DNA from: an uncultured Candidatus Berkelbacteria bacterium
GTDB lineage: Bacteria > Patescibacteriota > UBA1384 > UBA12157 > JAENIV01
Length of the DNA: 64,000 nucleotides
NCBI GenBank assembly: GCA_963698075.1
Contig: OY969116.1
Coordinates: 400,097-464,096 of the forward strand
Reading direction: 5' to 3'
A program made the translations under genes and the position numbers. The notes under the pieces were generated by a model. It saw only the letters and a program-made list of their open reading frames with translations. It was not told where the DNA came from and searched no databases. Shown here piece after piece: positions 247 to 59,172 of the stretch; within the stretch, counting starts at the first letter, position 1; each line of letters begins with the position of its first letter.

Positions 247-1343
247 TTTTCAAAATAAGATGTTTTTAGTTTTTTTTCTTTATCAAAACGCTCTAATGCT
301 AATTGAATTAATTTATCTATTAAATCAGGATAGCTTAAACCGCTTGCTTCCCAAAGTTTCGGATACATGCTTATTTTCGTAAATCCAGGAATAGTATTTA
401 GCTCATTGACGATCAGGTCATTTTCTCTAAGAAAGAAATCAACCCGTGCCATGCCCTCACAAGAACAAATCTTAAAAGATTTTATCGCTAATTCTTGTAC
501 TCTCCGAGTTAGTTTAGATGATATTTTAGCCGGTATTTCCAAAACTGCCCCATTTTCATCAATGTACTTTGCTCTGTAAGAATAAAATTCATCTTTTACT
601 TTGACTTCGCCTGGGATTGATGCGATTGGATTATCATTTCCTAACACCGAACATTCAATCTCTCTGCCATCAATAGCTTCTTCAAATAATATTTTTCTGT
701 CAAAGGCGAACGCTTCTTCAACTGCTTTCTGAAATTCATTTTTATTGTGAATCTTATTTATACCCACTGATGAACCAAGATTTGCGGGTTTTACGAAAAA
801 AGGCAAACCCAGTTGACGTTTTATTTCCTCAAACTCTATTTTTTTGTTTTTGGTAGAAATAAATTTCGCGGTTGGGATCCTGGCCTCTTTAAAAAGCCTT
901 TTCATTACATCTTTATCCATCCCAATAGCTGACCCTAAAACGCTTGATCCAACAAAGGGTATTCCAGCGAGCTTAAATAATCCCTGAATAGTACCATCCT
1001 CTCCCATTGGACCATGTAAAATCGGGAAAACGACATCGACAACTCCGACTGTTGAACGATCTGTATTGTTTAATAATTCCCCCGATTTACCACTTGCTAC
1101 CATAGACACACTCTTTGCCGATGAATTTTCTTTGTTTAGTTTGATTAACTTCGGATCTTCGGAATTTAATAAATATTCCGCTGGACTGTTCAAATACCAT
1201 CGGCCATCTTTATCAATGCCGATAGGAATGATATCGTATTTAGATCGATCGATAGCTTCAATAACATTTTTGGCTGATTGAAGCGATACTTCGTTTTCAG
1301 CCGAAACACCCCCAAATAATACTGCTACTTTAATTTTCCTCAT
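243..1343 (-). CDS. ddl: D-alanine--D-alanine ligase. Likely true start is the MRKIKVAVLFGG ATG at 1343; the ORF track extends to 1439.
   Basis: VAVLFGGVSAENEVSLQSA..., ATP-grasp motifs GPMGEDGTIQGL and VKPANLGSSVG, and length typical of Ddl. Confidence 0.9.
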   Translation of the reverse strand: MRKIKVAVLFGGVSAENEVSLQSAKNVIEAIDRSKYDIIPIGIDKDGRWYLNSPAEYLLNSEDPKLIKLNKENSSAKSVSMVASGKSGELLNNTDRSTVGVVDVVFPILHGPMGEDGTIQGLFKLAGIPFVGSSVLGSAIGMDKDVMKRLFKEARIPTAKFISTKNKKIEFEEIKRQLGLPFFVKPANLGSSVGINKIHNKNEFQKAVEEAFAFDRKILFEEAIDGREIECSVLGNDNPIASIPGEVKVKDEFYSYRAKYIDENGAVLEIPAKISSKLTRRVQELAIKSFKICSCEGMARVDFFLRENDLIVNELNTIPGFTKISMYPKLWEASGLSYPDLIDKLIQLALERFDKEKKLKTSYFEK

Positions 1344-1466
1344 GTATCCTTTTTGGCTTGCGAGCTTGGCGATTGGTTTTTGAGACATTTTTACATTTAA
1401 TAATTCGACGGCGGAACTTGCCGGTTTGCTTTTTGGCATAATTTAGGTAGGATTTTTGGGCCACCT

Positions 1467-1637
1467 TTAAGCCGCTTTGGCTGGTCGGCGGGGAATGCGG
1501 TGACCGGCGGCGCGGGCTTTGGACAAATTGACAGCCGCCTCTTGGCGTTTGCAACCGGCCTTGGTCGGATGACGACCCAAAATCTTCTTGCCGTCGTGGC
1601 TGTAAAGATACCACTTTTTCCCGACTTTTTTGATCAT
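1467..1637 (-). CDS. small basic protein (about 56 aa), GC-rich, function unknown
   Basis: ATG at 1637 with strong SD (GAAGGAGACCAAATG). The ATGA overlap with the stop of the upstream methyltransferase suggests coupling. Sequence MIKKVGKKWYLYSHDGKKILGRHPTKAG...; locally high GC. Confidence 0.4.
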   Translation of the reverse strand: MIKKVGKKWYLYSHDGKKILGRHPTKAGCKRQEAAVNLSKARAAGHRIPRRPAKAA

Positions 1638-2257
1638 TTGGTCTCCTTCTGGCCTGTAACTTGAACCCATTTTGTTTGACCAGAGTTTAAAATACTTGAA
1701 TCGATAATTTTTATGTTTGAATCTTTCAAATACTTTTCAATCTCATCCTTAGTATAATAACTATAAAATCTTTGATATTCATAACCGTAATCATTTTCTT
1801 TAACGATTTCTTCATCAATCCCTTTATTGGATTCTTTAACCGCAATATAAATATATCCCTTAGGTTTTAATAAATCTACCCATTTTTTAATAATTTCGGC
1901 TGCTTTCTTTTTCGGGACATGGAGCAAACATGCTTGCGCAAATACTCCATCAAATTTTCCTTTAAAAGTAATGCCCTCCATATCCATCACTTGAAAAATC
2001 CCTTCTGGTGCGTTTTTCCGAGCAAGCTTAATCATTTTTTCTGAGATATCTATACCAACCACCTTTAAACCTTTGTCTATAATAGCTCTTGACTTAAGAC
2101 CTGAGCCACAACCGATATCCAAAATTTTAGATCCTTTTTTGAATAATGATGCAAATTTCTTTGCTGCCTCAACTGACCAAATGTCATTTTGATGATCTTG
2201 ATTCCAGTCTTCAGCAATTTTATTATAAGTTTTCTTAAGATTTTCTTTATAATCCAT
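1634..2257 (-). CDS. class I SAM-dependent methyltransferase. Start chosen at MDYKEN (2257) to avoid overlap with the Nudix gene.
   Basis: Motif I ILDIGCGSGLKS followed by VVGIDISEKMI; methyltransferase type 11 pattern. Confidence 0.8.
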   Translation of the reverse strand: MDYKENLKKTYNKIAEDWNQDHQNDIWSVEAAKKFASLFKKGSKILDIGCGSGLKSRAIIDKGLKVVGIDISEKMIKLARKNAPEGIFQVMDMEGITFKGKFDGVFAQACLLHVPKKKAAEIIKKWVDLLKPKGYIYIAVKESNKGIDEEIVKENDYGYEYQRFYSYYTKDEIEKYLKDSNIKIIDSSILNSGQTKWVQVTGQKETK

Positions 2258-2806: not shown

Positions 2807-4036
2807 TTAATTCTGAATCATTGTATTATTCACAAGATATGCAGAAACATCGTCGCAACCATAATTAAAAGTTTGTTCCTCGCCCGCCTTCAACACCAAG
2901 CTTATAAGCCGCGATTTATCCAGCAGCCCACAGCGCACATAATAAATATTTGCCGGACCTTCATTTTTTACTTTAGTCTGATCTCTGCCTTTATTGACGG
3001 TCATGACTGCCGATATATCAGCGAGAGCTGAATTATTAAAATTAGCTAAAATTTCCCTTACATATTTTGCGGTCTCAAACTTAGACTCGCGACTCGGTTC
3101 AATTTGGCTGTATTCATACCATTCGTTCCATGAAGTAATGTAAAGCCAATTAGCATTGTTTTTTTTGGCAATCTCATAGCGAGCGTCTAGATACTGTCCA
3201 TTGGAACGATCAACTTCAAAACCTGATTTTTCCAATTTACTCGTTCCGCCAATTAAAGTTGCAATTAGCGCTCGGTTAAGGTCTTTTAAGTGGGCATAAT
3301 GGTTTGAAGTATCGTTAAGACTAATGTACTTATCCGCATAAGTAGTTATCGTCTGAAAATATTTAAAATAATCATCCGATACATCCCAGTTATCTGGCAT
3401 TGCCACATAATAGGCATCGCCGGTGGAAGCTTTAATTTCGTCTAAGATTTTTTGCCAGCGATCCAAATCAATCGTTTGAGGATTATAGACAAAGATAACC
3501 GGCAATCCGTTAAGTTTCAAATAGGCAGGATGTTCTTTGCTCAGATTAATTAAATATGTTAATTCATCAACAAAAGTTTTATTTGCTGCTTTATACTCAA
3601 AATTAATATTTTCATACAAAGGGGTAATTTTGAAATTTAGATATTCATTCGAACTTTCAATTTTCGTCAGCATCTTGATAAATGCTCTATCATTCTGATT
3701 ATCGATCCCATTCCAGGAGAACAAAAAACCATCAAGCCCGATATCCGAGGCCAAAGTAAGTTGATAATCAATTGTCTCATCATCTTGTGGATTATAGGAT
3801 CCGGCTAAAGGATGCTCGGCATCGGTATATTCAGCCCATGCAGGATTTTTATAATACCAGCCATAGTAACTAGCCAGAGCAATTTTATCATCCAGCGTGA
3901 ATTCTTTTTGATTTTTGTTAATAGTTGGTGATGAAGATGGATTTGGTGTTTTTTTGTTATAAATAAAAAACGCGCCCCAACCAGCAACAACTATCAAAAT
4001 AAAAAAGATAACAATTCTAATTAGCCATTTTTTCAT
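2807..4036 (-). CDS. membrane-anchored secreted protein, putative glycoside-hydrolase-like (TIM-barrel-like) domain
   Basis: N-terminal TM helix (LIRIVIFFILIVVAGWGAFFIY) followed by a W/Y-rich domain (YGWYYKNPAWAEYTD...DGFLFSWNGID). The family call is tentative. Confidence 0.35.
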   Translation of the reverse strand: MKKWLIRIVIFFILIVVAGWGAFFIYNKKTPNPSSSPTINKNQKEFTLDDKIALASYYGWYYKNPAWAEYTDAEHPLAGSYNPQDDETIDYQLTLASDIGLDGFLFSWNGIDNQNDRAFIKMLTKIESSNEYLNFKITPLYENINFEYKAANKTFVDELTYLINLSKEHPAYLKLNGLPVIFVYNPQTIDLDRWQKILDEIKASTGDAYYVAMPDNWDVSDDYFKYFQTITTYADKYISLNDTSNHYAHLKDLNRALIATLIGGTSKLEKSGFEVDRSNGQYLDARYEIAKKNNANWLYITSWNEWYEYSQIEPSRESKFETAKYVREILANFNNSALADISAVMTVNKGRDQTKVKNEGPANIYYVRCGLLDKSRLISLVLKAGEEQTFNYGCDDVSAYLVNNTMIQN

Positions 4037-4063: not shown

Positions 4064-6703
4064 TTATCTCCCATGGCACTTCTTATACTTTTTACCCGAA
4101 CCGCATGGACAGGGCTCATTGCGGCCGACTTTGGGGAAAATGCCGCCAGAGGATGTGGTTGGCCGTGATTCGCCGCGTTTTCTAACAGTAACTTCTACCC
4201 CGGAATTAGAGGTATTTTGAACCTGATTTAACACCTCACTCCGTTGAGGTGTTGGATTTTCCGTTAACGGCTCAGGGGGTGAGCCGTTAGAAACGTTCCC
4301 GAAAGTTCCGGCGGCCATTTGTTCATCTGCCCCGCGCATTTGCATCGCCCGCGCTGGCTGCTCAACTGCCAATCTTCGCGGTTGCGGCTGAATTTCCGCT
4401 TTCAATAATATTTCTACCACTTGGGCATTAATATTGCCAAGCAAACGCTGGAATAAAGCATAAGACTCGGCCTTGTATTCGACGAGCGGATCGCGCTGAC
4501 CGTAACCGCGTAGCCCGATTCCTTCGCGCAATAAATCCATGGCATTTAAATGCTCTATCCACATGGTGTCAATCGACCGCAAATAAACCATCCGCTCAAC
4601 ATTATCCATTACCTCTTTGCCAACTCGATCATATTTTGTTTGATATTCCGCCCGCGCTTCATCGTCCATCAAATCCAGGATTTCTTGATGGATGTCGCCG
4701 CCTTCTAAAATCTTTCGCCGTTTTGAATAAATGGCCTGGCGATGTTTATTGGCGACATCGTCGTATTCAACGAGGTGCTTTCGAATATCAAAGTTGTGGC
4801 CTTCAACTTTTTTCTGGGCCGATTCAATAGAGCGCGAGATAAGCGAGTGTTCGATAGGGACGTCATCGGGCAACCTCAAGGTGCTCATTAAATTTTTCAT
4901 CCGATCGCCGCCAAAAATTCTCATTAAATCATCATCCATTGAAACATAAAATTGCGACGTGCCCGGATCGCCCTGGCGACCAGAACGACCGCGAAGTTGA
5001 TTATCAATTCGCCGCGCTTCGTGCCGTTCAGTGCCCAAAACGTGCAAACCGCCGGCTTTGACTACTTTTTCATGCTCAATCTTGTCAAAGGGCGAACCGC
5101 CTAAAACAATGTCCACACCACGTCCTGCCATGTTGGTTGCTACCGTCACGTTACTTGGCCGACCGGCTTGAGCAATAATTTTAGCTTCCCGTTCGTGGTG
5201 CTTGGCATTTAAAACTTCGTGTTTAACCCCCAGGCGTTTGAGTATCCGCGATAAACGCTCACTTTTTTCAATCGAAATTGTTCCCACCAAAAGCGGCTGA
5301 CCAGCTTCCGAGCGTTTTTGAATTTCGGCGGCCACCGCATTAAACTTGGCCTCTTCAGTTTTGTAGATTTGATCTTGTAAATCTTTGCGAATCATCGGCA
5401 TATTCGTCGGAATCACAACGACATCTAATTTATAGATTTTATAAAATTCCTCGGCTTCAGTTTCTGCTGTCCCAGTCATGCCCGCCAATTTTTTATACAT
5501 TCGAAATAAATTCTGAAAAGAAATCGTCGCCAAAGTATCGGATTCCCGCTGAACTTCAACGCCTTCTTTGGCTTCAATGGCTTGATGAAGACCCTCGCTG
5601 TAACGCCGACCAGGCATCAAACGACCAGTGAATTCGTCAACTATAATGACTTCGCCGTTTTTAACAACATAGTCTTTATCTTTTTTATAAAGGGCGTGAG
5701 CAATTAAAGCTTCTTCCAAATGATGGACAAGTTGAATTGATTTTGTATCATAAACAGTTTCCAAGCCCAGCATGCCCTCGACTTTTTTCATGCCAGCATC
5801 GGTGAGAGTGACGGAGCGCATTTTTTCGTCAACTTCAAAATCTCCCGCCTCGGCGCTGTCCGCCTCGGATCGGCGAGACGGGCCGAGTCGCGACGGGTCT
5901 TTTGCCTTTAACTTAGGCACCATCATCGCAAACTGACGATATAAACTGGCCGATTCTTCGGCCGGCGCCGAAATAATTAAAGGCGTGCGCGCCTCATCAA
6001 TTAAAATCGAGTCTACCTCATCAACAATGGCATAGTGTATATCCCTTTGGACCATCTGTTCTCGCGACTGGACCATATTGTCGCGCAAATAATCGAAACC
6101 GAATTCATTATTAGTACCGTAAGTAATGTCCGCGGCGTAAGCGTCTTTTCTCGAAATTGGCAAAAGATTTTCGTATTCGATTGAGACTGGATCAACATCG
6201 CGCTTATTCGGTGTAAACAAAAAAGACGATTCATGATTAATCACCGCCGCCTTGAGTCCTAATTTATCGTAAATCGGCCCCATCCAAGCACAATGAAAGC
6301 GAGCCAAATAATCGTTGACTGTCACCAAATGCGCGCCCTTGCCTTCTAGCGCATTTAAATATAAAGGCAAAGTTGCCACAAGGGTTTTTCCTTCACCAGT
6401 TTTCATTTCCGCGATTTTACCTTGATGAAGAACAATACCACCGATTAATTGAACATCAAAATGTCGCTGGCCAATGGTTCTTTTAGCCGCTTCTCTTACC
6501 GCCGCAAAAGCTTCCGGCAAAATATCATCCAAAGCTTCATCTTTGGCAAGCCGCTCTTTGAATTCGGCTGTTTTTTCTTTTAACTGATTATCGGTTAATT
6601 TTTGATAATCGGCTTCGAGTCCATTTATCTTATCAACCGTTGGCTTCAGCTGACCGATCACTTTTTCATTACTATCAAAAATTTTCCCTAAAAATCCGAG
6701 CAT
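4064..6703 (-). CDS. secA: preprotein translocase ATPase SecA
   Basis: DEAD-motor motifs, 879 aa, and a C-terminal zinc-binding tail [14 protein letters not shown]. Confidence 0.95.
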
Positions 6704-6765
6704 TTAGAGTCCTTTCGACCTTATTTTACCATATTTTAGGGTAAAAGAAAACCGGCGAAACTACT

Positions 6766-6794
6766 TGACTTAGAAACAACAATATGGTAATATA
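6766..6794 (+). promoter_or_regulatory. sigma70-like promoter TTGACT-N17-TAATAT driving the GC-rich gene at 6922
   Basis: ttgacttagaaacaacaatatggtaatat. It is followed by a roughly 125-nt leader containing a GC hairpin (ctggccgtcggccag) and an AAGGAG SD. Confidence 0.5.
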
Positions 6795-6921
6795 TCTTAT
6801 GCCCCATAGGCACAATGTTTTGCATTCTGAACAATAGAGGCAATTTGGACAATCTATCTCCTGCCGAACCCTGGCCGTCGGCCAGAGGTTGCCAAGGTCG
6901 CAAGACCAAAAGGAGAAGAAG

Positions 6922-7581
6922 ATGTCAGCCTCTATGTCGAGGAAGGAACAGATCGTCAGTTGGGTCAAAAGCGAGCTTGAAAAAGCTGTCAACGAAACAC
7001 AGGAAATGGCAGCCAAGCTGCGCTATGCCAAGGTGGTGGCTCGAACAGCCGAAGGCCTTGAGGCCCATGCAGAGATGGCTTACCGCCAAATCAAACAAAA
7101 GAAACGCGCTGACTACCGACAAATCGGCCAGATGTGGTTCACCGCCGCCCTGCTACGTCTTCCAGAAACCATGAGATTCCGATTCCACCTCGAGCATGTT
7201 CAAAATGACCCCTTGATTCGTCGCGATGTTGTTATGGGGGCTTCCAACTTTGCCCGGGGGCTCGACATCTACTTCGATGCCGAGCGGATTGAAGCTATGA
7301 GGCTGGGTGTCGAACTTCTCTGTGAGGACAAACAAGTCGCAGATCTGATCAAACCGGTAATCCGTGTGATCAACCTCAAGCACATACTTACCCTGTCTTT
7401 GACCATGGTCGGCATCTCACCAGCAACACTTTCGGCGACAATGATCGAAGGTATAATCAAAGAAACCAAACACCATCCTAATACCGCTGTTAAAGAAATG
7501 CTCGATGGCCTCCTTGAAGCCATCACGGCGGTGGCGCCAACTACGGGCGAGGTGCTAATGACAATCTACAATAGTTGTTGA
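6922..7581 (+). CDS. hypothetical protein, high-GC cassette gene A (about 220 aa from the SD-supported ATG at 6922)
   Basis: SD aaaggagaag 7 nt upstream. About 55% GC against a roughly 37% background. All-helical sequence with no recognised motif. Confidence 0.55.
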   Translation: MSASMSRKEQIVSWVKSELEKAVNETQEMAAKLRYAKVVARTAEGLEAHAEMAYRQIKQKKRADYRQIGQMWFTAALLRLPETMRFRFHLEHVQNDPLIRRDVVMGASNFARGLDIYFDAERIEAMRLGVELLCEDKQVADLIKPVIRVINLKHILTLSLTMVGISPATLSATMIEGIIKETKHHPNTAVKEMLDGLLEAITAVAPTTGEVLMTIYNSC

Positions 7582-7587
7582 GTCCAA

Positions 7588-7620
7588 GCCACAAGCTCTC
7601 GAGAGCTTGTGGCTTTTTCT
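7588..7620 (+). terminator. rho-independent terminator of gene A
   Basis: gccacaagctctc/gagagcttgtggc perfect stem followed by TTTTTCT. Confidence 0.75.
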
Positions 7621-7690
7621 ATATTTACCTTTCTTTTTCTTTATAGTTCTAAACCGCTTGAGCCCATTTCGTAAATGGTCTTTAATTGGT

Positions 7691-7724
7691 CAGTTAAAGA
7701 AAAGCGGCGAAACTACTCCGCCGC
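7691..7724 (-). terminator. rho-independent terminator of gene B; the stop codon lies inside the stem
   Basis: On the minus strand GCGGCGGAGTAGTTTCGCCGC followed by TTTTCTTT. Confidence 0.65.
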
Positions 7725-8153
7725 TGGTACAGACATCGCTCGTTCAAGCTCTTTGCGAGCTGCCTCTTTCCAGGCATCGCATTCAATCATCATCTGATTG
7801 AGAATTTCTACGTAGAGACACCTAGCAAGCTCATCATCATCAATCTCTTTCATCTGTGGAGGCCAGATGAGTTTCAACTTGCCAGTTGCGGCCATTCCAT
7901 CAAATTCAACCCTAATGTTCATCTCGGGAAATGCATCGTCTCCGGTCCAAAAAACAGTTGCTCTCCTAAGCGAAACGAAACAAAGCTCTGTGGTCATAAG
8001 TTTACCGATGGTTTGATAAAGGACCTCTACGGCTCTCTCAATGAGATTCGATTCAACAGCTCGGCCAAATCCAACCCTCGTACGGAAATTCAGCTCAACT
8101 TCCCAACCCACTTTCATTCTCGTACCACAATAAGCCCTTACACCACCTCGCAT
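7713..8153 (-). CDS. hypothetical protein, high-GC cassette gene B (146 aa)
   Basis: Strong SD (CCGGAGGAAACATG). Elevated GC, convergent with gene A, and has its own terminator. Confidence 0.5.
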   Translation of the reverse strand: MRGGVRAYCGTRMKVGWEVELNFRTRVGFGRAVESNLIERAVEVLYQTIGKLMTTELCFVSLRRATVFWTGDDAFPEMNIRVEFDGMAATGKLKLIWPPQMKEIDDDELARCLYVEILNQMMIECDAWKEAARKELERAMSVPAAE

Positions 8154-8291
8154 CGTGGTTTCCTCCGGTCAAAGAAACTATCACAATAATATGATATAGA
8201 TAAAAATCTGTCAATCATTTATTTAGACATTTTATCATTAGAACATTGGAAATTAATTGAAAATTGAGAATTGGAAATTGAAAATTTCCCT

Positions 8292-8657
8292 TTAGATCTC
8301 CCCTTCCGCCTCTTCCTCTAATTCCGCCTCGTGATACTTTTGGGGATATCGAGTGCCAATTTTTATCTGCTCTTTATATTTAGAAACTTGTGTCTCAAAG
8401 CGCTCTTCGATTAGATCAATTGAGCCCATAAAATCATTCGTCACTTCTTCAATGTGAATTGGGTTTTTAAGCCCTGGCAGGGTGGCGGTCAAACAAACCG
8501 CTTGATCATTGCCCTTTGGCCCCATAAAATTGCTCAAAACGATCTCAAGAGTCGCTGGCTCTTTAACCATTTTTTCAAATCTTCTAAATCTCTCGTTAAT
8601 GTAACCCCTTAAATTGTCATCAACTTTAAATTGCTTACCAGAGATAGTTATCTTCAT
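8292..8657 (-). CDS. hpf: ribosome hibernation promoting factor (HPF/RaiA short form)
   Basis: MKITISGKQFKVDDNLRGYINERFRRFEKMV...; 121 aa; ATGA overlap with the serS stop. Confidence 0.8.
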   Translation of the reverse strand: MKITISGKQFKVDDNLRGYINERFRRFEKMVKEPATLEIVLSNFMGPKGNDQAVCLTATLPGLKNPIHIEEVTNDFMGSIDLIEERFETQVSKYKEQIKIGTRYPQKYHEAELEEEAEGEI

Positions 8658-9886
8658 CGTTTAATTTCCTTAAAATCAACATATTTCAGTAAAACTTCCG
8701 GCACTTTCACCGAACCATCCTTTTCTTGGTAGTTTTCCAAAATCGCAATCAGCATCCGGCCGATAGCGACGGCGGTGCCGTTGATAGTGTGGACGAATTC
8801 ATTTCCTTTTTCTGATTTATAGCGAATACTTAAACGCCTCGCTTGGAAATCAGTGCAGTTAGACGCCGAATGAGTCTCGCGATACTTACCCTGCCCCGGC
8901 AACCAAGTTTCGATATCAATGGTTTTGGCCGCCGGCATTCCTAACTCGCCGGCACAAAGTTTGACGACGCGATATGGCAGCTCCAATCCTTTCATGATTT
9001 TTTCTTCAAGCTCCACTATCAAACCAAGTTCTTTTTCAGAATCTTTGGATTCACAAAAGGTAAACATTTCGAGTTTATCAAATTGATGAACGCGAAATAT
9101 GCCGTGAGTATCCTTGCCATATGAGCCAGCTTCGCGCCTCAAACAAGTTGAAAAAGCCACAAATCGCTGCGGTAGATCTCGCAATATTTCATTAGCATAA
9201 TACGGCAAGATTGATTGTTCGGATGTGCCCACGGCCACCATTTCGTCATTTTTCATGTGATAGGCGTCGTCATTGGTGGCTTCAAAATGACCCGAGCCCC
9301 AAGCCATATCATTTTTAATCAAAATCGGCGGAATCATGGCTCGAAATCCCTCTTTTTTAATTATTTCCATCGCGTATTGAATCAAAGCAAACTCGAGCTC
9401 GACTGCTTCATTTTTTAGATAATAAAATCTTGAGCCAGAAACTTTGCTGGCCCGTTCGATATCGATAAGGTCCAATTTTTTACCAATTTCTACATGATCA
9501 TTACCTTTTTTGAGTCCGATTTTGCCGACTGTTTTGATTATTTCATTTTGCGACTCATCTTTGCCTTCCGGAACATCGGAAAGGGGAATGTTGGGAATTT
9601 TGACAGCCTCAATTTTAAAATTTTCCTCCGCTTCAGCCAGTTGCGGCTCAAGATCTTTGAGCATTTTTTTAATTTCCTTTGCTCGATCGGTGCGTCGGCT
9701 GACGGACTTCCCCTCCTTGGCCATTTTGTTGTGGGCGGCCCTAAGCATCTCAATCCGCGCCATCAAGCCCCGCCGCTCCTCATCCAACTCCAAAACCTTA
9801 TCCACATCACATTTAAACTGGCATTTTTGAGCAATATCCTTTTTTACTTCCTTCAAATTTTCCCGAACATATTTTATATCAAGCAT
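8654..9886 (-). CDS. serS: seryl-tRNA synthetase. Start at MLDIKYVREN; the ORF-track N-terminal extension reads through a terminator hairpin and is rejected.
   Basis: Class II aaRS motifs, N-terminal coiled-coil arm, and GYTPCFRREAGS-like motif 2 (CLRREAGSYGKD). Confidence 0.9.
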   Translation of the reverse strand: MLDIKYVRENLKEVKKDIAQKCQFKCDVDKVLELDEERRGLMARIEMLRAAHNKMAKEGKSVSRRTDRAKEIKKMLKDLEPQLAEAEENFKIEAVKIPNIPLSDVPEGKDESQNEIIKTVGKIGLKKGNDHVEIGKKLDLIDIERASKVSGSRFYYLKNEAVELEFALIQYAMEIIKKEGFRAMIPPILIKNDMAWGSGHFEATNDDAYHMKNDEMVAVGTSEQSILPYYANEILRDLPQRFVAFSTCLRREAGSYGKDTHGIFRVHQFDKLEMFTFCESKDSEKELGLIVELEEKIMKGLELPYRVVKLCAGELGMPAAKTIDIETWLPGQGKYRETHSASNCTDFQARRLSIRYKSEKGNEFVHTINGTAVAIGRMLIAILENYQEKDGSVKVPEVLLKYVDFKEIKR

Positions 9887-9913
9887 TCTAGATTTATTAT
9901 ATCCTGTTATTTT

Positions 9914-9956
9914 AAAAAGAAAAAGGGGCGAATACCGTTCGAACGGTATTCGCCCC
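9914..9956 (-). terminator. rho-independent terminator of gene C
   Basis: Perfect 14-bp palindrome ggggcgaataccgttcgaacggtattcgcccc followed on the minus strand by TTTTTCTTTTT. Confidence 0.8.
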
Positions 9957-9969
9957 AGTATGTGCATTA

Positions 9970-10689
9970 TCACAACATCGGGAACGCATTGTGGGCAATG
10001 CGCTTGAGCCATGGGTCCCAGGAATCAACATCAGGAGCCAACCATTTTGCCCAGCGATCAGAAGGATACGTTTCACGGAGCAATCTGATAGCTTGGGCCA
10101 AATAGGCCTCACCGCCCTCTCTCTCTGCTAATGCCGCCGCAAGAATCGGTAATCCTTCACGGATAGCCGTGAGAGGAGGATGGCCGTACTCACCTGGAAG
10201 CCACACCAGACCACTAAAGGCATCCAGCAGCTCTTCGAAGGTGCCGTCCTTGGTCTGCAAACTGGCAATCCAACGAGAGTGGAGAGACTCATCCTGCTGG
10301 TTCTTGATTATCAGCCAGCGGAGACTACGTTGTAGCTTAGGAGAAAGTAGTATCATGCCGGTATTCACTCGACACTCAAGGTTAAGCGCGGGCAACAACA
10401 ACTCCCCCTCCTGCAACTCCTGTCCCAGCTCGAAGAGATTGGTCAGATAACCCTGGTCATCACCCGAGTGTACCCTGTTCAGGAGTTCAACACACAGGTG
10501 GGCCATGGCCCGGTAGCGGCTCAGTCTATCTTCTGGGATTCCGGCGATGCAGTAAACACACCACGCCGGCGTACGAGGACATTGAACCGGAAGCTTGCCC
10601 TCGAGGAAACACCGCAACTCATCGGCCATGAGGCTTAGCCAGCCAGCTCCAGCCTCCTCGCATTCCTCTGGAAACCATCTTATCGGCAT
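9970..10689 (-). CDS. hypothetical protein, high-GC cassette gene C (about 239 aa from the ATG at 10689)
   Basis: SD GGGAGGTGG upstream of the MPIRWFPEE start. About 55% GC. Helical, W/L/E-rich, no recognised motif. Confidence 0.5.
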   Translation of the reverse strand: MPIRWFPEECEEAGAGWLSLMADELRCFLEGKLPVQCPRTPAWCVYCIAGIPEDRLSRYRAMAHLCVELLNRVHSGDDQGYLTNLFELGQELQEGELLLPALNLECRVNTGMILLSPKLQRSLRWLIIKNQQDESLHSRWIASLQTKDGTFEELLDAFSGLVWLPGEYGHPPLTAIREGLPILAAALAEREGGEAYLAQAIRLLRETYPSDRWAKWLAPDVDSWDPWLKRIAHNAFPML

Positions 10690-10745
10690 GTTGCCACCTC
10701 CCACATGTGGTCACTACAGGTTCAACCATCAATTAAGAATATCAC

Positions 10746-10780
10746 ATTATACCAAAAAATCAAGCCCCAAGGCCTGATTT
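10746..10780 (-). promoter_or_regulatory. lysS terminator hairpin (G-U wobble stem plus T-run) overlapping an extended -10 (TGGTATAAT) for gene C
   Basis: Minus strand: AATCAGGCC-TTGG-GGCTTGATT TTTTGGTATAATGTG. Confidence 0.5.
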
Positions 10781-10803
10781 ATATATTTCTCACTAAATAA
10801 TGT

Positions 10804-12366
10804 TTATTGAGAAATAGATTCCAATCTTTTTAGCACAAATTCCCTATCCAAACTCGCCAAGAGCCAGCCAGCCTGCGGGCCGGAATCTTTACCAATAAAC
10901 GATAAGTAGATTGCCGAAAACGCATCACGAGGATTAATATTCATTGTTTTTCGAATTTCGTGGATTTTTGGATGAAGTTCTTCGCCGGTCCATGACTCTT
11001 TTGATTTAATTATATCAGAAATTTTTCTTAAAAATTCTTTTTGCTTGGCAGTCAAATTTTTGGCAACAGAAGGCAATTTATCAGCAATGGTAAATTTGTA
11101 ATTTTCCGGCGCGAATCTTTTTAGCCAATTTTTTGCGACTTCAATTCTATCTGCGATTTCACTCTTTTCAATTTCCGATAATTCCGACCCCTTCTCTTTT
11201 TTAGCGTATTTCCAAATATCTATCCGAGGCATTTGGAGCATATAAGCGATTTTCGAAAAGCGTAATAAATATTGGGGCTGGTCTTTTTCGGAATTGCTAG
11301 TGGCGTAATAATATGAACGCGCTAAATCACTATTTGGATCTTTTTGATAAAGTTCGACCATGCGGTCATATTCATCATAAAGCAAAGGAATTGTCTCGCC
11401 TTCTGGCTGAAACTCGATTGCCCGTTTGGCTTTACTTCTTACAAATAAAAACCTCAAAATATTGGCGGGCAGAAAATCAGCCATATCTTTGGCCGTAACC
11501 CCAAGACCCTTAGACGAAGCCATTTTCTTTCCGCCGACTAAGAAAAATTCATAGGGAATATCATATGGCGGTTCTTTTTTGAAAACTTTGCGGTAAATAT
11601 GGTTGGCAATATCTCTTGAGCCGCCGGCAGCAGAATGATCTTTGCCTTCACCTTCAATATCTGTGCCAAAAACAAACCATTTACAGGCCCACTCAACTTT
11701 CCAAGGCAATTTGGCATTGCCGTCAAAAGGAGAGGCCGAGCCTTCATAGCCGCACCCCTTGGCCCATTTAACTAAATTTTCTTCACATTTAAATCGAACT
11801 TCCTTACCGTTCCAATCGGTTACTTTTGTTGTCCCGATTTTTCCACATTTCGGACAAATAACCTGCAAAGGAAACCAATCTTCACCCTTGTCTGACCCGG
11901 AAACCTCTTTATATATCTTTCGGATTTCATGAGCATTGTCTAAAATAATTTCAATCGTTTCATTAAATTTGCCGTTTTTATAAAGTTCTGATGTTTTGAC
12001 AATTTCCGGGTCTATGCCAAGACCATTAAAAACACCCTCAAACTCTTTCAAATACTGCTCGGCAAAACTTGAGAATTTCCCGTCGGGTGCTGGAATATTC
12101 GAAAGTGGTTTGCCCATATGTTTCTCCCAAGACTGATCAACATATACCGGCAATCCGTCCATGGGATCAAAATCGTCGAAGCCATATTGAAAAACAGCTT
12201 TCTTACTCTTATCTTCTAAGCCTCGTCGGATACAATCATGAACAATTACCCCTCTTAGAGCACCAATATGGGAATGCCCAGACGGCGTCGTCCAATCGGT
12301 AATTAAAAAGGAGTCCTTTTGGACGTTGGTAAAAACATCTTCAATTATTTCATCAACCCAAAACAT
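10804..12366 (-). CDS. lysS: lysyl-tRNA synthetase, class I type
   Basis: HIGH-like PSGHSHIGALRG near the N-terminus, KMSKS-like KMASSKG, and about 520 aa as expected for class I LysRS. Confidence 0.8.
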   Translation of the reverse strand: MFWVDEIIEDVFTNVQKDSFLITDWTTPSGHSHIGALRGVIVHDCIRRGLEDKSKKAVFQYGFDDFDPMDGLPVYVDQSWEKHMGKPLSNIPAPDGKFSSFAEQYLKEFEGVFNGLGIDPEIVKTSELYKNGKFNETIEIILDNAHEIRKIYKEVSGSDKGEDWFPLQVICPKCGKIGTTKVTDWNGKEVRFKCEENLVKWAKGCGYEGSASPFDGNAKLPWKVEWACKWFVFGTDIEGEGKDHSAAGGSRDIANHIYRKVFKKEPPYDIPYEFFLVGGKKMASSKGLGVTAKDMADFLPANILRFLFVRSKAKRAIEFQPEGETIPLLYDEYDRMVELYQKDPNSDLARSYYYATSNSEKDQPQYLLRFSKIAYMLQMPRIDIWKYAKKEKGSELSEIEKSEIADRIEVAKNWLKRFAPENYKFTIADKLPSVAKNLTAKQKEFLRKISDIIKSKESWTGEELHPKIHEIRKTMNINPRDAFSAIYLSFIGKDSGPQAGWLLASLDREFVLKRLESISQ

Positions 12367-14897: not shown

Positions 14898-15374
14898 TTA
14901 TCCTACTTTAATTTCCTCCTGGATTGGAATTATTTTCTCCAAAATCCAATAAATTAAAACTCCCCAGAGTCCACTGATTATCGCTTGGGGAAAGATCTGC
15001 CAAAATGGCCAATGACCCATGAATAAAAAAAGACCTAAATCAACCAATAGCAAACTAGTGACAAAAATTAAAAAAGATATCCCGAGGCTGGGCACCGGGA
15101 ATGTTTTTAAGACGTAAAAATTAATAATTAAAAGAGTGATCATGAAAAATAAGGTATAAGCTCCGAACCTCAAAGGAGATGCCAGGTCCAAAAGCAAGCC
15201 GCTAATACCGGCCAAAAGGAAACTATTGCCGCTTTGCCCCCTAAACATTAAAGAGATAGCGATAATGAGAAGGAAGTTGGGGATTGTCCCCCAGATGGAA
15301 AATTTAGTCACAATCGCCAGCTGAAAAACGACTAGAAGAAAATAGGCAAAAATTTTTAAAATAATTTTAATCAT
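14898..15374 (-). CDS. mreD: rod shape-determining protein MreD
   Basis: Polytopic 158-aa membrane protein between mreC and mrdA. Confidence 0.6.
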   Translation of the reverse strand: MIKIILKIFAYFLLVVFQLAIVTKFSIWGTIPNFLLIIAISLMFRGQSGNSFLLAGISGLLLDLASPLRFGAYTLFFMITLLIINFYVLKTFPVPSLGISFLIFVTSLLLVDLGLFLFMGHWPFWQIFPQAIISGLWGVLIYWILEKIIPIQEEIKVG

Positions 15375-30386: not shown

Positions 30387-30473
30387 TGGTGCCCGGAAGA
30401 GGACTCGAACCTCCAAGACCTTTCGGTCACTACCACCTCAAGGTAGCGCGTGTGCCAATTTCGCCATCCGGGC
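30387..30473 (-). tRNA. tRNA-Leu (GAG), CCA encoded
   Basis: Manual fold: GCCCGGA/TCCGGGC acceptor, anticodon stem CTACC/GGTAG with loop TTGAGGT, long variable arm, terminal ACCA. Confidence 0.85.
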
Positions 30474-30561: not shown

Positions 30562-31821
30562 TTAGCAAAGACAAGCGACGCAGTAGATTCGCTCGGGAGT
30601 ACCAATGGCCTGTATTAATTCCTCAAGTGGCAAAGTGAAGGTGGCTGAAACCCCTAAGGCTTGGCTAATCTTCGGCAAGGTTAAACGGCGATCAATAAGA
30701 TCTTCACTGTTATAGGCGGCATCGCCATGAGGACATGAAGAACTACCAATTGAGCCGACTGCCGCCAAAACATCAGTGGCCCCTCGAGCACGGCATTGTT
30801 CTGCCATATGGGCAATCTTGGCCCCGGAACGAATCTGATCATCAATAAGAACGATCCGACGGCCAGCGACATTTGGGAGAGGCGTAAGATCGAAATTCTC
30901 AGAAAGCCCAATCTTTTTAGCAGCCAATTTCATGTGGGCAGGCACTGAATAGAGCGACTTTATCGAACCAGCTGGATCGACTTTGATCCCCGAAGTTTGG
31001 CCGAAACCGATGCAAAACGGACGGCCGCCTTCGAGTATCGGGATCCCCTTGTATTCTTCGGCCCTATTCGCTCCAGGAGATACAAGATATTGGGCAAACC
31101 TCTTTCCCAACCGCCTACCTATATCGAGACGAATCGCATTGATCTCTCTGTTACCACTCAGATTACCTGGACGCTGTTTGAAAAGAACTTCATTGACACA
31201 ATGTCGAGGATCAGCTCGATCTAAGACCACGATTTCTTCTCGAGCTTCTTGAGTGATCACCTGGAGGCTGCCTGGCGCGACCGTGTCTAAGAAAAAACCA
31301 TCGACGAGAACGCCACTCTGTGAGGCGACGTAGAAACCAGAAAAACCATCGAGCTCAATCTCGCCGATAGTCAAGGGCTTTATGCCACTATTCCTGGCGG
31401 CAATTAGACCGTGGTCGCCTGACAAAACTACAAGAGCAAACGGATCAGGAATCTCAATCAGCGCCTGTCTGACCGCGCCGATCACATCCTGTGACTCAGT
31501 TAGTAAATTGGCAATGATCGAAGTTATGGCTCTGGTCGCATCGACTGCAAAGGCAAGTTGACGGCTAGAGTCCGATAAGTCAATAGGTTGAAGAACGCTT
31601 GTCGCGCAACCATTATGGCCAATCGCAACCCTACCATTGAATTTGGGATATCCTGGGAAAACCTCAATCGCCTTCCCCGGAGCTTTCTCAAGATGAATTC
31701 CGTGATCGGTTAAGGCGGCAATTCCTGTCGAATGTTCACCGGCGTATATTTGCAAACAGAGCGCCATGACTACTTGAGGAACAACATCATTATTGCCAAT
31801 GACTCCCAACACTCGACACAT
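30562..31821 (-). CDS. amidophosphoribosyltransferase-like protein (class II Gln amidotransferase plus PRTase domain), high GC
   Basis: Start MCRVLGVIG (Ntn Cys1) with SD GGAGGA; PRPP-binding RRIVLIDDQIRSGAKI; C-terminal Cys cluster. About 50% GC against a 37% background. Confidence 0.7.
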   Translation of the reverse strand: MCRVLGVIGNNDVVPQVVMALCLQIYAGEHSTGIAALTDHGIHLEKAPGKAIEVFPGYPKFNGRVAIGHNGCATSVLQPIDLSDSSRQLAFAVDATRAITSIIANLLTESQDVIGAVRQALIEIPDPFALVVLSGDHGLIAARNSGIKPLTIGEIELDGFSGFYVASQSGVLVDGFFLDTVAPGSLQVITQEAREEIVVLDRADPRHCVNEVLFKQRPGNLSGNREINAIRLDIGRRLGKRFAQYLVSPGANRAEEYKGIPILEGGRPFCIGFGQTSGIKVDPAGSIKSLYSVPAHMKLAAKKIGLSENFDLTPLPNVAGRRIVLIDDQIRSGAKIAHMAEQCRARGATDVLAAVGSIGSSSCPHGDAAYNSEDLIDRRLTLPKISQALGVSATFTLPLEELIQAIGTPERIYCVACLC

Positions 31822-31920
31822 CTTGGTATCCTCCTCTAGCACTCAAAAAGAGCGCCGTTTGTCTTGGTGCTCCCTTGCTTAAAATAACAAATAATAAATA
31901 AAAGTAAAGTCTAATAAAAA

Positions 31921-32003
31921 TGCCCGAGGAGAGATTTGAACTCTCACGACCTTGCGGTCACGGCGTTCTGAACGCCGCCTGTCTACCATTCCAGCACTCG
32001 GGC
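31921..32003 (-). tRNA. tRNA-Leu (CAG)
   Basis: Manual fold: GCCCGAG/CTCGGGC acceptor, anticodon stem CGGCG/CGCCG with loop TTCAGAA, long variable arm, T-loop TTCAAAT. Confidence 0.85.
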
Positions 32004-32029
32004 AATATTTTTTTTATTCCGACGGAATT

Positions 32030-53498: not shown

Positions 53499-54806
53499 TT
53501 ATTGAACCGGCTTAAATTCGAGATTCCAGGTCCCGCCGCCGTAATCAGTAACACCAAAGGCACCGCCGCCGGTGCCGGAACTTAATTGAATCGAACCTGA
53601 CCAGCTGCCGTTGCCGCCGTGGGTAACGCCGCCGATATTACAGGATCCATTAATATTCCCGTGGATACTCCCGCCATCACCACCCGCGAATGTGCCACTA
53701 ATATCACCCCGGCAACTACCGACTTCAACCCCTTTTTGGGCATAGCAAGGACCAATAAAATCGCCGCTAACCGCTCCGCCGCCAGAGGAAAAATTTAGAT
53801 TAATCGTGCCGTGGCAATCGCCTTCGCTCCAAATGCCGGTGCCGCGAATTTCTTTGGATTCGCTAGTCGGCGAGGAACTCGGTTGGCTCTCGGCCGCGTC
53901 TGAATCTTCGGTCGGTTTTTCTTTCTTTATCTCCTCAGCCGTCTGCTTCGGATTAATTGGCGCCTTTTGATTTTCATCATAAAAAGTGAAATATTTCTTT
54001 GTCGCCTCCGCCGCCTCAACAATATCGCCAGCATCGCCAGCGACTTGTTTGACTGCCTCTTTGCCGGCTTCAACCGCGTAATTCGGAAAGTCGGTGGTTC
54101 TAAATTTAACGGCATTATCTACGATTGTATCGTCCAAAGTGTCATTTCCGATTTCATCCCAGGGATCGCGGTTCGGCCGCTCAACAATCTGTTTCGTCCG
54201 CCCCCAAAAAGTATTCTCCTCTAACCATCTTTTAAATTTCTCCCATGGCCCCGGCTGTTCGGTGCCGATATTAACGCGTTCGTAAGCCAGGACTCGAGGA
54301 AAAATCCCAACATGATCGGAGGCATTTAAATTGCGCATCGATGTTGCGACGGCAATTAATTGATCATCTTTAAAAATCGTCGCTAATTCGTTGTCAAAAT
54401 TTAAAGTCCGCTGGCCGTTTTGTTCACTTACTTCTGCTTGGCCAAAGCGAGCAATAAAAAAGCCCTCATTTTCGTCGCCAGTAAATTCATATGGTTTAAT
54501 GTCGACAAATTTCGCGCTCGAAGGACTAACAATTTTTTCTTTGGCTGTCAGAATCCCATTGGCAAAAGTAAATTTATAACCGTAAGATTCGTAATACCAA
54601 ATTTCCAATTTCTGTTCTGATTCGTCATTAGAATACATTGCCACGAAATGATCTGGCCAATCGAGATTGCCAATGATTACTTTTTGATGGCTAGAAAGCC
54701 GGCTGGCATTTTCCGCAGCAATTAATTTGCCATAGACCAACAGACCGATGACAACAATAATGAGGACTCCAAGAATAATTAATAGAATCTTTAAGCCTTT
54801 TTTCAT
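53499..54806 (-). CDS. membrane-anchored hypothetical protein with a Gly-rich C-terminal region
   Basis: N-terminal TM; C-terminal repeats of GG/GT/GS (…GGDGGSIHGNINGSCNIGGVTHGGNGSW…). Confidence 0.45.
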   Translation of the reverse strand: MKKGLKILLIILGVLIIVVIGLLVYGKLIAAENASRLSSHQKVIIGNLDWPDHFVAMYSNDESEQKLEIWYYESYGYKFTFANGILTAKEKIVSPSSAKFVDIKPYEFTGDENEGFFIARFGQAEVSEQNGQRTLNFDNELATIFKDDQLIAVATSMRNLNASDHVGIFPRVLAYERVNIGTEQPGPWEKFKRWLEENTFWGRTKQIVERPNRDPWDEIGNDTLDDTIVDNAVKFRTTDFPNYAVEAGKEAVKQVAGDAGDIVEAAEATKKYFTFYDENQKAPINPKQTAEEIKKEKPTEDSDAAESQPSSSPTSESKEIRGTGIWSEGDCHGTINLNFSSGGGAVSGDFIGPCYAQKGVEVGSCRGDISGTFAGGDGGSIHGNINGSCNIGGVTHGGNGSWSGSIQLSSGTGGGAFGVTDYGGGTWNLEFKPVQ

Positions 54807-58647: not shown

Positions 58648-59172
58648 TTGATGCCAGCACCATCCTGGGATTTAGCCATCGCCGTTTTTTTCCTCATCGG
58701 CATGGCCTTCGGTTATATCTTACAAAGAGAAAAAATTATTGCCACTCTTTTATCGGTCTACGTCGCCTTGGTTGTCACCCAGGTCTTTGCTGGTAATGTC
58801 TTTGAGTTCTTCCAAGGTAGTAAAACCATTGGTACCGTGTGGGTCCAGTCCGGCGCCTCGCCCTTCACTGTGAGGGTGATAATATTTATGGCAGTAATTA
58901 CCCTTTTATCAGCTAAGGGAGGAATCAAAGGCGCCACGGCTAAGGGTCTCCTTTCGCCAATTGAAATTATCTTGCTATCTTTCTTGACCACCGGGCTTAT
59001 CTTATCAAGTATTTTCTATTTTATGCCGCCTGAATCCCGCGAAACATTTATGGCGGCCTCAAGATTGGCAAACTTGGTGATTAAATACTATATTTGGTGG
59101 GTTTTGGCCCCGCCAGTTGCTCTAATTGCTTTAGGATTTTTTAGACGCACCAGTTCGAGTTCATCCGACTAA
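58648..59172 (+). CDS. hypothetical polytopic membrane protein
   Basis: Four or five hydrophobic helices; no motif. Confidence 0.4.
   Translation: MMPAPSWDLAIAVFFLIGMAFGYILQREKIIATLLSVYVALVVTQVFAGNVFEFFQGSKTIGTVWVQSGASPFTVRVIIFMAVITLLSAKGGIKGATAKGLLSPIEIILLSFLTTGLILSSIFYFMPPESRETFMAASRLANLVIKYYIWWVLAPPVALIALGFFRRTSSSSSD

Follow-up and report, generated by a model that had tools for sequence, protein, structure and literature searches.

Genes A, B and C of a Berkelbacteria-like genome are probably unrelated single-gene units in variable slots between lysS and secA

We analysed three small genes, here named A, B and C, that lie in the lysS-serS-hpf-secA block of a 64-kb stretch of DNA (contig OY969116.1) from an uncultured Candidatus Berkelbacteria bacterium; the whole 64-kb stretch is called the window below. 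A preliminary description had presented them as GC-rich foreign cassettes, recently acquired and possibly forming one functional set. We found instead that A, B and C are probably unrelated to each other, and that they are real single-gene units placed in variable slots of this block in a Berkelbacteria-like genome. Among named genomes the nearest is a Candidatus Berkelbacteria MAG, with 72% identity in SerS. Gene A is clade-restricted, all-helical and under strong purifying selection. Gene B appears to be a vertically inherited, clade-restricted neighbour of hpf. Gene C is plausibly the only credible cross-phylum acquisition of the three, and is specific to this genome at its slot. All three open reading frames (ORFs) were found where they had been described:

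6922..7581, + strand: gene A, ORF of 219 aa
7713..8153, - strand: gene B, ORF of 146 aa, in the same direction as hpf
9970..10689, - strand: gene C, ORF of 239 aa

Results

Composition of the three genes

We compared G+C content (GC), GC at third codon positions (GC3) and synonymous codon choice across 61 ORFs of the window, namely A, B, C and 58 others. C ranked first in GC3 (0.588, z 3.6; GC 0.549, z 3.9) and A second (0.568, z 3.2; GC 0.509, z 2.9). Their synonymous codon choice was also the most atypical of the 61 ORFs (z -3.5 for A and -4.5 for C). Gene B was no compositional outlier, with a GC of 0.469 (z 1.9) and a GC3 of 0.442 (z 1.2, rank 10), the same composition as secA (0.457 and 0.441). 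The GC of 50-55% that had been given for all three genes thus holds for A and C and fails for B, and the host background, put at about 37%, was 40.1% over the window. The core genes had been called normal in composition, but secA itself contains stretches of 0.50-0.53 GC, so the contrast between cassettes and core genes is weaker than had been claimed.

Conservation and compositional stability of gene A

A search of 5.8 billion proteins with A returned only five relatives, at 67-81% identity. A metagenome scan recovered four loci, one of them new (L105), giving six homologue clusters in total. In four relatives at 75-81% identity, and in L105, the gene is found in the str operon in the context rpsL-rpsG-PLDc_N-(PaaX_M)-A-fusA. 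The homologue of locus L099 (67% identity) is not in the str operon; it has the arrangement of the window, next to secA. Between A and its str-operon copies a nucleotide similarity of ~79-80% runs from the promoter -35 through leader and ORF to the terminator. No family was found for A in Pfam, NCBIfam, PADLOC or PHROGs, and a profile search of PDB sequences was also empty.

We then looked at constraint. The ratio of nonsynonymous to synonymous divergence (dN/dS) of A is 0.11-0.14. In dN alone, A (0.11) stays under rpsL, rpsG and rpoC (0.15-0.18) in the same genome pairs. Its dS scales with that of its neighbours, for example 0.28 against 0.24-0.38 for the pair L001/L011. Low dN together with neighbour-scaled dS argues that A has been inherited with its neighbours and is tightly constrained. 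The recent foreign origin that had been proposed for A does not agree with orthologues in at least five lineages, with this co-divergence with ribosomal neighbours, or with the compositional results that follow.

A had a GC of 0.50-0.52 and a GC3 of 0.53-0.57 in every lineage, and GC3 was nearly equal between lineages at dS ~1. Polarised third-position changes on five terminal branches numbered 47 from GC to AT and 45 from AT to GC. If A were drifting to the genomic GC3 of 0.37, 68% of the changes would be expected to go from GC to AT, and the observed balance differs from this (p = 7e-4). It follows that the high GC of A is a stable trait and not the trace of a recent import. Alternatively, A could have been imported from a very GC-rich donor into the ancestor of the clade and still be only partly ameliorated; a GC3 of ~0.55 does lie between a GC-rich donor and the host, and only a few lineages have the family. 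We consider this improbable in view of the balanced changes, the near-equal GC3 across dS ~1 and the finding of no relative outside the clade. The GC-rich third positions of A would rather be at an equilibrium of their own, maintained and not a residue of recent import.

In relatives, the small PLDc_N membrane protein gene beside A was GC-rich as well (GC3 0.56-0.60) compared with its ribosomal neighbours, and a 115-aa ORF after fusA was likewise GC-rich (GC 0.555). These ORFs are located at 5676-5942 of L001 and at 3142-3417 and 6751-7098 of L007.

Arrangement of gene A beside secA

In the window A forms a complete unit of promoter, leader, ORF and terminator, bracketed by a 25-nt direct repeat:

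6741..6765, no strand: left copy of the 25-nt direct repeat, the duplicated 3' half of the B terminator; it abuts the A promoter -35 and the secA promoter
6765..6793, + strand: promoter of A (TTGACT, 17-nt spacer, TAATAT, TG-extended)
6797..6921, + strand: structured 5' leader of A, ~125 nt, with hairpins UGCC..GGCA, CUGGCCGUCGGCCAG and GGUCGCAAGACC
7586..7620, + strand: intrinsic terminator of A (hairpin 7586-7615 with 15-nt perfect palindromic arms, then a T run)
7693..7717, no strand: right copy of the 25-nt direct repeat, inside the B terminator and stop codon

The two copies are identical at 23 of 25 positions, and the 18-nt core of the repeat occurs only at these two sites in the 64 kb. 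The B-side copy retains the whole hairpin; the secA-side copy holds only the 3' half and the promoter. Locus L003 has the corresponding empty site, where one intact copy forms the B terminator and the secA promoter follows directly. The same repeat motif flanks the A homologue in L099. The arrangement is common to the two lineages and would have been made by a target-duplicating insertion, or by recombination at the site. We found no recombinase gene near A, and neither a recombinase nor a tRNA gene adjoins A or C. The A unit would have moved as a whole into a variable slot. In this genome and in the L099 lineage it stands beside secA, with a copy of the 3' half of the adjoining terminator on either side; in related lineages its place is in the str operon, between rpsG/PLDc_N and fusA.

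The A homologue in L099 (289-950) and in L100 (135-784) carries a frameshift near codon 33. Its presence in two independent assemblies suggests a pseudogene or recoding.

The leader of gene A

The leader was predicted to fold so that an anti-Shine-Dalgarno (anti-SD) element, UCUCC, pairs with the Shine-Dalgarno sequence (SD) GGAGA, with the AUG placed inside a helix. Its minimum free energy was -49.6 kcal/mol (z -4.1 against shuffles). The leader is more conserved than the ORF, most of its columns being invariant across five lineages. Covariation was nearly absent because the sequences are too similar, and the structure is accordingly given as predicted only. Rfam gave no match for the leader, and the region 6650-10850 yielded terminator-like chance matches only. 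No further copy was detected with a covariance model of the leader, in a search that covered the window and nine other loci, A-bearing relatives excluded.

We compared the leader with known leaders that sequester the ribosome-binding site (RBS), such as riboswitches, RNA thermometers and ribosomal-protein leaders. Like these, the A leader is conserved and folds far better than shuffled sequences, and the prediction places its SD and AUG in a helix with an anti-SD. It differs from them in having no Rfam family and almost no covariation in support of the fold. We regard the leader as a candidate translational control element and a putative new cis-regulatory RNA, which would hide the RBS and start codon of its own gene. 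A itself is probably a conserved, single-copy, clade-specific helical protein; it may act as a translationally controlled factor of housekeeping type that is possibly linked to translation.

Gene B

Two relatives of B were found, in L003 and L101, both at 77% identity and both directly after hpf. The identity with the L003 protein falls within the range of 62-91% seen for the flanking core proteins of the same genomes. The dN/dS of B is 0.14, and its composition in the relatives is similar (0.44-0.46 GC). Searches with B of Pfam, NCBIfam, PADLOC and PHROGs, and a profile search of PDB sequences, gave no match. A foreign origin had also been proposed for B, and is not supported, given its ordinary composition and a same-position orthologue that is as conserved as the core genes. 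B would thus be an hpf neighbour of near-ordinary composition passed on by vertical descent. The sole clue to its function is the fixed position after hpf, the gene for a ribosome hibernation factor.

8186..8214, - strand: promoter of B (TTGACA, 17-nt spacer, TATTAT; 11/12 matches)
7703..7725, - strand: intrinsic terminator of B, a hairpin with the stop codon TAG inside the loop

In L003 and L101 the B terminator is conserved as a landmark that precedes the secA promoter. The stop codon had been placed in the stem of this hairpin; we found it in the loop. In L101 a further insertion is seen at this landmark: a small Cys-rich ORF (1590-1790, CPHCGKW...) that comes after the B stop codon and ahead of the conserved terminator.

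Gene C

A word-indexed protein search with C found only C itself. When phmmer was run against 1.8 billion representatives, one close relative was detected, the 254-aa protein P0011 (E 1e-50, 46% identity). Four proteins of 715-916 aa matched C through their first ~240 residues (43-45% identity, E 1e-37 to 1e-41), with weaker matches besides. The homology spans residues 4-238 of C (E 1e-50 to 1e-37). The long relatives bear C-terminal TPR arrays and sit in contigs of 0.54-0.63 GC, in which their composition is native. A distant relative, P0019 (30% identity, E 3e-6), is annotated as Elusimicrobiota. The TPR proteins P0012-P0015 and UPT72593.1 (Elusimicrobiota) share with C a domain of ~215 residues (40-45% identity). 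In these proteins it is joined by a linker to long TPR arrays, whereas C and P0011, from genomes of ~0.40 GC, consist of the domain alone.

Six residues (Q131, W140, G160, L180, P209 and W224) were invariant in an alignment of 18 sequences, and an AlphaFold2 (AF2) model built from the same alignment had 13 helices, with a pLDDT of 90.1 and a pTM of 0.87. C is confidently modelled as an ARM/HEAT-like alpha-solenoid of stacked helical repeats. A Foldseek search with the model found nothing at E <= 0.001 (TM <= 0.49), Pfam ARM/HEAT families gave no match at E <= 1, and a profile of C against PDB sequences matched only the TPR part of the long relatives. Compared with known ARM/HEAT proteins (importins, designed armadillo proteins, ZYG11B), C has 8-16% sequence identity, so that the likeness is at the level of the fold only. 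Given the solenoid fold class, C is most likely a binding scaffold. It would represent a helical-repeat scaffold from a domain family that also supplies the N-terminal part of long TPR proteins in GC-richer bacteria, and may serve as a protein-binding adaptor.

P0011 forms a GC island (0.548, GC3 0.608) in a 0.395-GC contig with SecD, SecF, ManC and DUF8128, and has its own promoter, SD and terminator. It is possible, though on balance we doubt it, that C and P0011 are separate recent imports from unsampled GC-rich bacteria (possibly hosts of the episymbionts) that have the stand-alone domain, with GC as a mark of recency. The wider family is indeed found in 0.54-0.63 GC genomes and Elusimicrobiota, C is unique at its slot with one close relative among the 1.8 billion representatives, and the GC3 of 0.59-0.61 lies between a donor-like 0.75 and a host-like 0.37. 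However, C and P0011 are each other's closest relatives (sisters in a neighbour-joining tree, bootstrap 1.0) and share the short architecture, both are in ~0.40-GC contigs, and a GC-rich stand-alone donor was not found. Moreover, because they are only 46% identical, their divergence suggests one old entry and a long residence without amelioration. We weakly favour such a single old entry into low-GC genomes, with the high GC kept as in A. The foreign character claimed for C was borne out in that its relatives are in GC-rich bacteria outside the candidate phyla radiation (CPR) and that it is unique at its slot; recency belongs to the reading of separate imports.

9925..9956, - strand: intrinsic terminator of C (16-nt perfect arms, then a T run, then the serS promoter and start)
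10690..10754, - strand: upstream region of C, with SD GGGAGGTG (~10697-10704) and extended -10 TGGTATAAT (10754-10746)

Around C no repeats of >= 9 nt were present; the single 8-nt match was inverted and of low complexity. No plasmid or phage relatives of C were found by tblastn.

Variable slots in the lysS-serS-hpf-secA block

Loci L003 and L015 keep the gene order of the window, PBP-greA-lysS-...-serS-...-hpf-...-secA-...-GH99, but every junction differs. L003 reads lysS-[PaaX_M]-[164 aa]-serS-[143 aa]-hpf-[B]-secA and L015 reads lysS-[157 aa]-serS-[164 aa]-hpf-secA, where a gap of 49 bp between hpf and secA holds no gene. In L101, hpf is followed by B, the small Cys-rich ORF and the terminator; in L099 it is followed by a different 125-aa gene, the terminator and A. 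The window has C in the lysS|serS slot and B and A in the hpf|secA slot. The different contents of the junctions among relatives suggest that these are slots for small genes that come and go.

PaaX_M genes in the variable slots of relatives were very AT-rich (GC 0.27-0.34), and none was present in the window. They are found in L003 at 4487-5080 (the slot of C), and in L001 (6171-6794) and L011 (1723-2346) they immediately precede A within the str operon.

Promoters, terminators and gene boundaries

Each of the three genes forms its own transcription unit, as had been proposed. Strong hairpin terminators were confirmed for A (7586-7615), B (7725-7703) and C (9956-9925), and the pairing of the A terminator is preserved in relatives via compensatory substitutions. 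Promoters of the sigma70 type with -35 and -10 elements were present for A and B. For C, which had been credited with one too, only the extended -10 was seen, overlapping the lysS terminator (hairpin 10780-10757), and a good -35 was not found. A and B are convergent with separate terminators, and hence do not form an operon.

The longest serS ORF (8654-10012, - strand) extends upstream across the C terminator into the 3' end of C. The actual start of serS is the ATG at 9886 (MLDIKYVRENL), preceded by TATAAT, with no clear SD. The hpf start and the serS stop overlap by 4 nt (8654-8657).

Relationship between A, B and C

The preliminary description read the genes as three recently acquired foreign cassettes, possibly one accessory module for defence, toxin-immunity or host interaction. 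Several of the results above are in its favour: A and C are the top outliers in composition and codon use, each gene is self-contained, slot contents vary among relatives, and direct repeats flank A. We nevertheless judge it very unlikely. The orthologues of A and B are at least as conserved as core genes, and the composition of A is at equilibrium and that of B ordinary. No two of A, B, C and the slot genes of relatives were similar by BLASTP; A, B and C do not co-occur, and A and B do not share an operon. Indirect evidence comes from the samples listed for the homologue clusters, where no single assembly is entered for more than one of the three genes. Locus by locus, B occurs without A and C in L003, A occurs without B in L099, and L015 lacks all three. 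Nor are the cassettes strain-specific as a group, since A has orthologues in at least five lineages and B has two at the same position, leaving only C unique at its slot.

A role in defence or toxin-immunity was not supported by PADLOC, Pfam, NCBIfam or PHROGs, in which no match was significant (best E ~0.003-0.01, far below the cut-offs); in PADLOC the best E was 0.009 for A, with nothing for B or C. Scans of viral contigs found no relatives of A or B, and the searches overall gave no phage, plasmid or viral relatives. A and B also do not look like a toxin-antitoxin pair: they face each other, are served by separate promoters and terminators, have no Pfam or NCBIfam domain, and do not co-occur in relatives.

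We also asked if the GC-rich stretches could be structured RNAs or chance ORFs and not protein genes. When a GC-rich island occurs in an AT-rich genome it is often an RNA gene, and Pfam is silent on all three. This explanation is scarcely credible. The dN/dS is ~0.12-0.14 for A and B, the order of GC at the codon positions (GC1>GC3>GC2) is that of coding sequence, the model of C reaches a pLDDT of 90 from its 18-sequence alignment, and Rfam finds nothing here, with only tRNAs at the gathering threshold across the window. The non-coding RNA reading was rejected on dN/dS and the structure model of C.

Other observations in the window

The minus strand carries about 54 of the 63 window ORFs, and the whole window has a negative GC skew; A is among the few genes on the opposite strand. 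The most codon-atypical genes of the window, A, B and C included, are nearly all uncharacterised. A 426-aa ORF without Pfam match (30562-31842, - strand; GC 0.494, codon z -2.35) is flanked by tRNA-Leu genes at 30387-30473 and 31920-32004, and may either belong to the GC-rich hypothetical class too or have been inserted at a tRNA. Two more ORFs without Pfam match have atypical codon use, at 58648-59172 (+ strand, z -2.7) and 14898-15374 (- strand, z -2.2). A third (53499-54806, - strand) has a GC of 0.46 with a local peak of 0.55, and its codon use was unflagged. A GC bump of ~0.50 at 1351-1650 contains only short minus-strand ORFs (1330..1614 and 1467..1670) and gave no Rfam match at E <= 1.

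Discussion

Within the amelioration framework of Lawrence and Ochman, compositionally atypical genomic islets are reportedly read as horizontal transfer. A and C resemble such islets in that they deviate in GC3 and codon use and lie between core genes, that A is flanked by direct repeats, and that slot contents differ among relatives. The differences are that A and C have a higher and not a lower GC than the host, that A has come down by vertical descent with its composition at equilibrium, that no integrase, tRNA target or mobility gene was found, and that the units are single genes of ~0.9 kb. A search of the literature on Berkelbacteria, GC content and horizontal gene transfer (HGT) found nothing relevant.

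Several points weigh against our reading of A, B and C as unrelated units in variable slots. GC3 in the ribosomal genes of the same genomes (0.36-0.48) is below that of A, so ordinary translational selection is insufficient to account for the high GC of A and perhaps of C. Parsimony polarisation of the changes in A is rough where dS is near 1. That A is single-copy was judged by protein search only, 64 kb of the genome having been read. The all-helical character that had been described for the three proteins holds in the AF2 models of A and C, but the model of A, made from 6 sequences, is of such low confidence (pLDDT 48.5) that it is unusable. The 25-nt repeat could be a recombination site rather than a target duplication, and A may have moved either out of the str operon to its place beside secA or in the opposite direction. 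The CPR membership of L095 is putative. Finally, the functions suggested for all three genes are inferred only.

A further proposal, speculative and in our view more likely wrong than right, is that selection or a gene-specific bias holds the synonymous sites of some clade-specific CPR genes, a small class, at high GC in AT-rich reduced genomes, with A as a new str-operon-linked core factor under a new RBS-sequestering leader. Besides A, its members would be the PLDc_N gene next to it, C with P0011, and further GC-rich ORFs that lack a Pfam match; the class would span divergences with saturated synonymous sites. Current understanding is unchanged unless the maintained-GC class or the leader is confirmed experimentally.

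The work flags three uncharacterised families. The first is a conserved protein linked to the str operon, whose leader is a candidate regulator; the second accompanies hpf; the third is a solenoid domain that stands alone here and also forms part of TPR proteins. It also defines a variable hot spot between essential genes, with an insertion hot spot at the B terminator. Among the conserved genes, the one with the most atypical composition has descended vertically and kept that composition. It thus runs counter to the rule by which unusual GC is taken as a sign of recent import, and this matters for the calling of islands and HGT in CPR genomes. If the maintained-GC class is real, 'foreign-looking' composition would mark a functional class in these genomes and not recent transfer.

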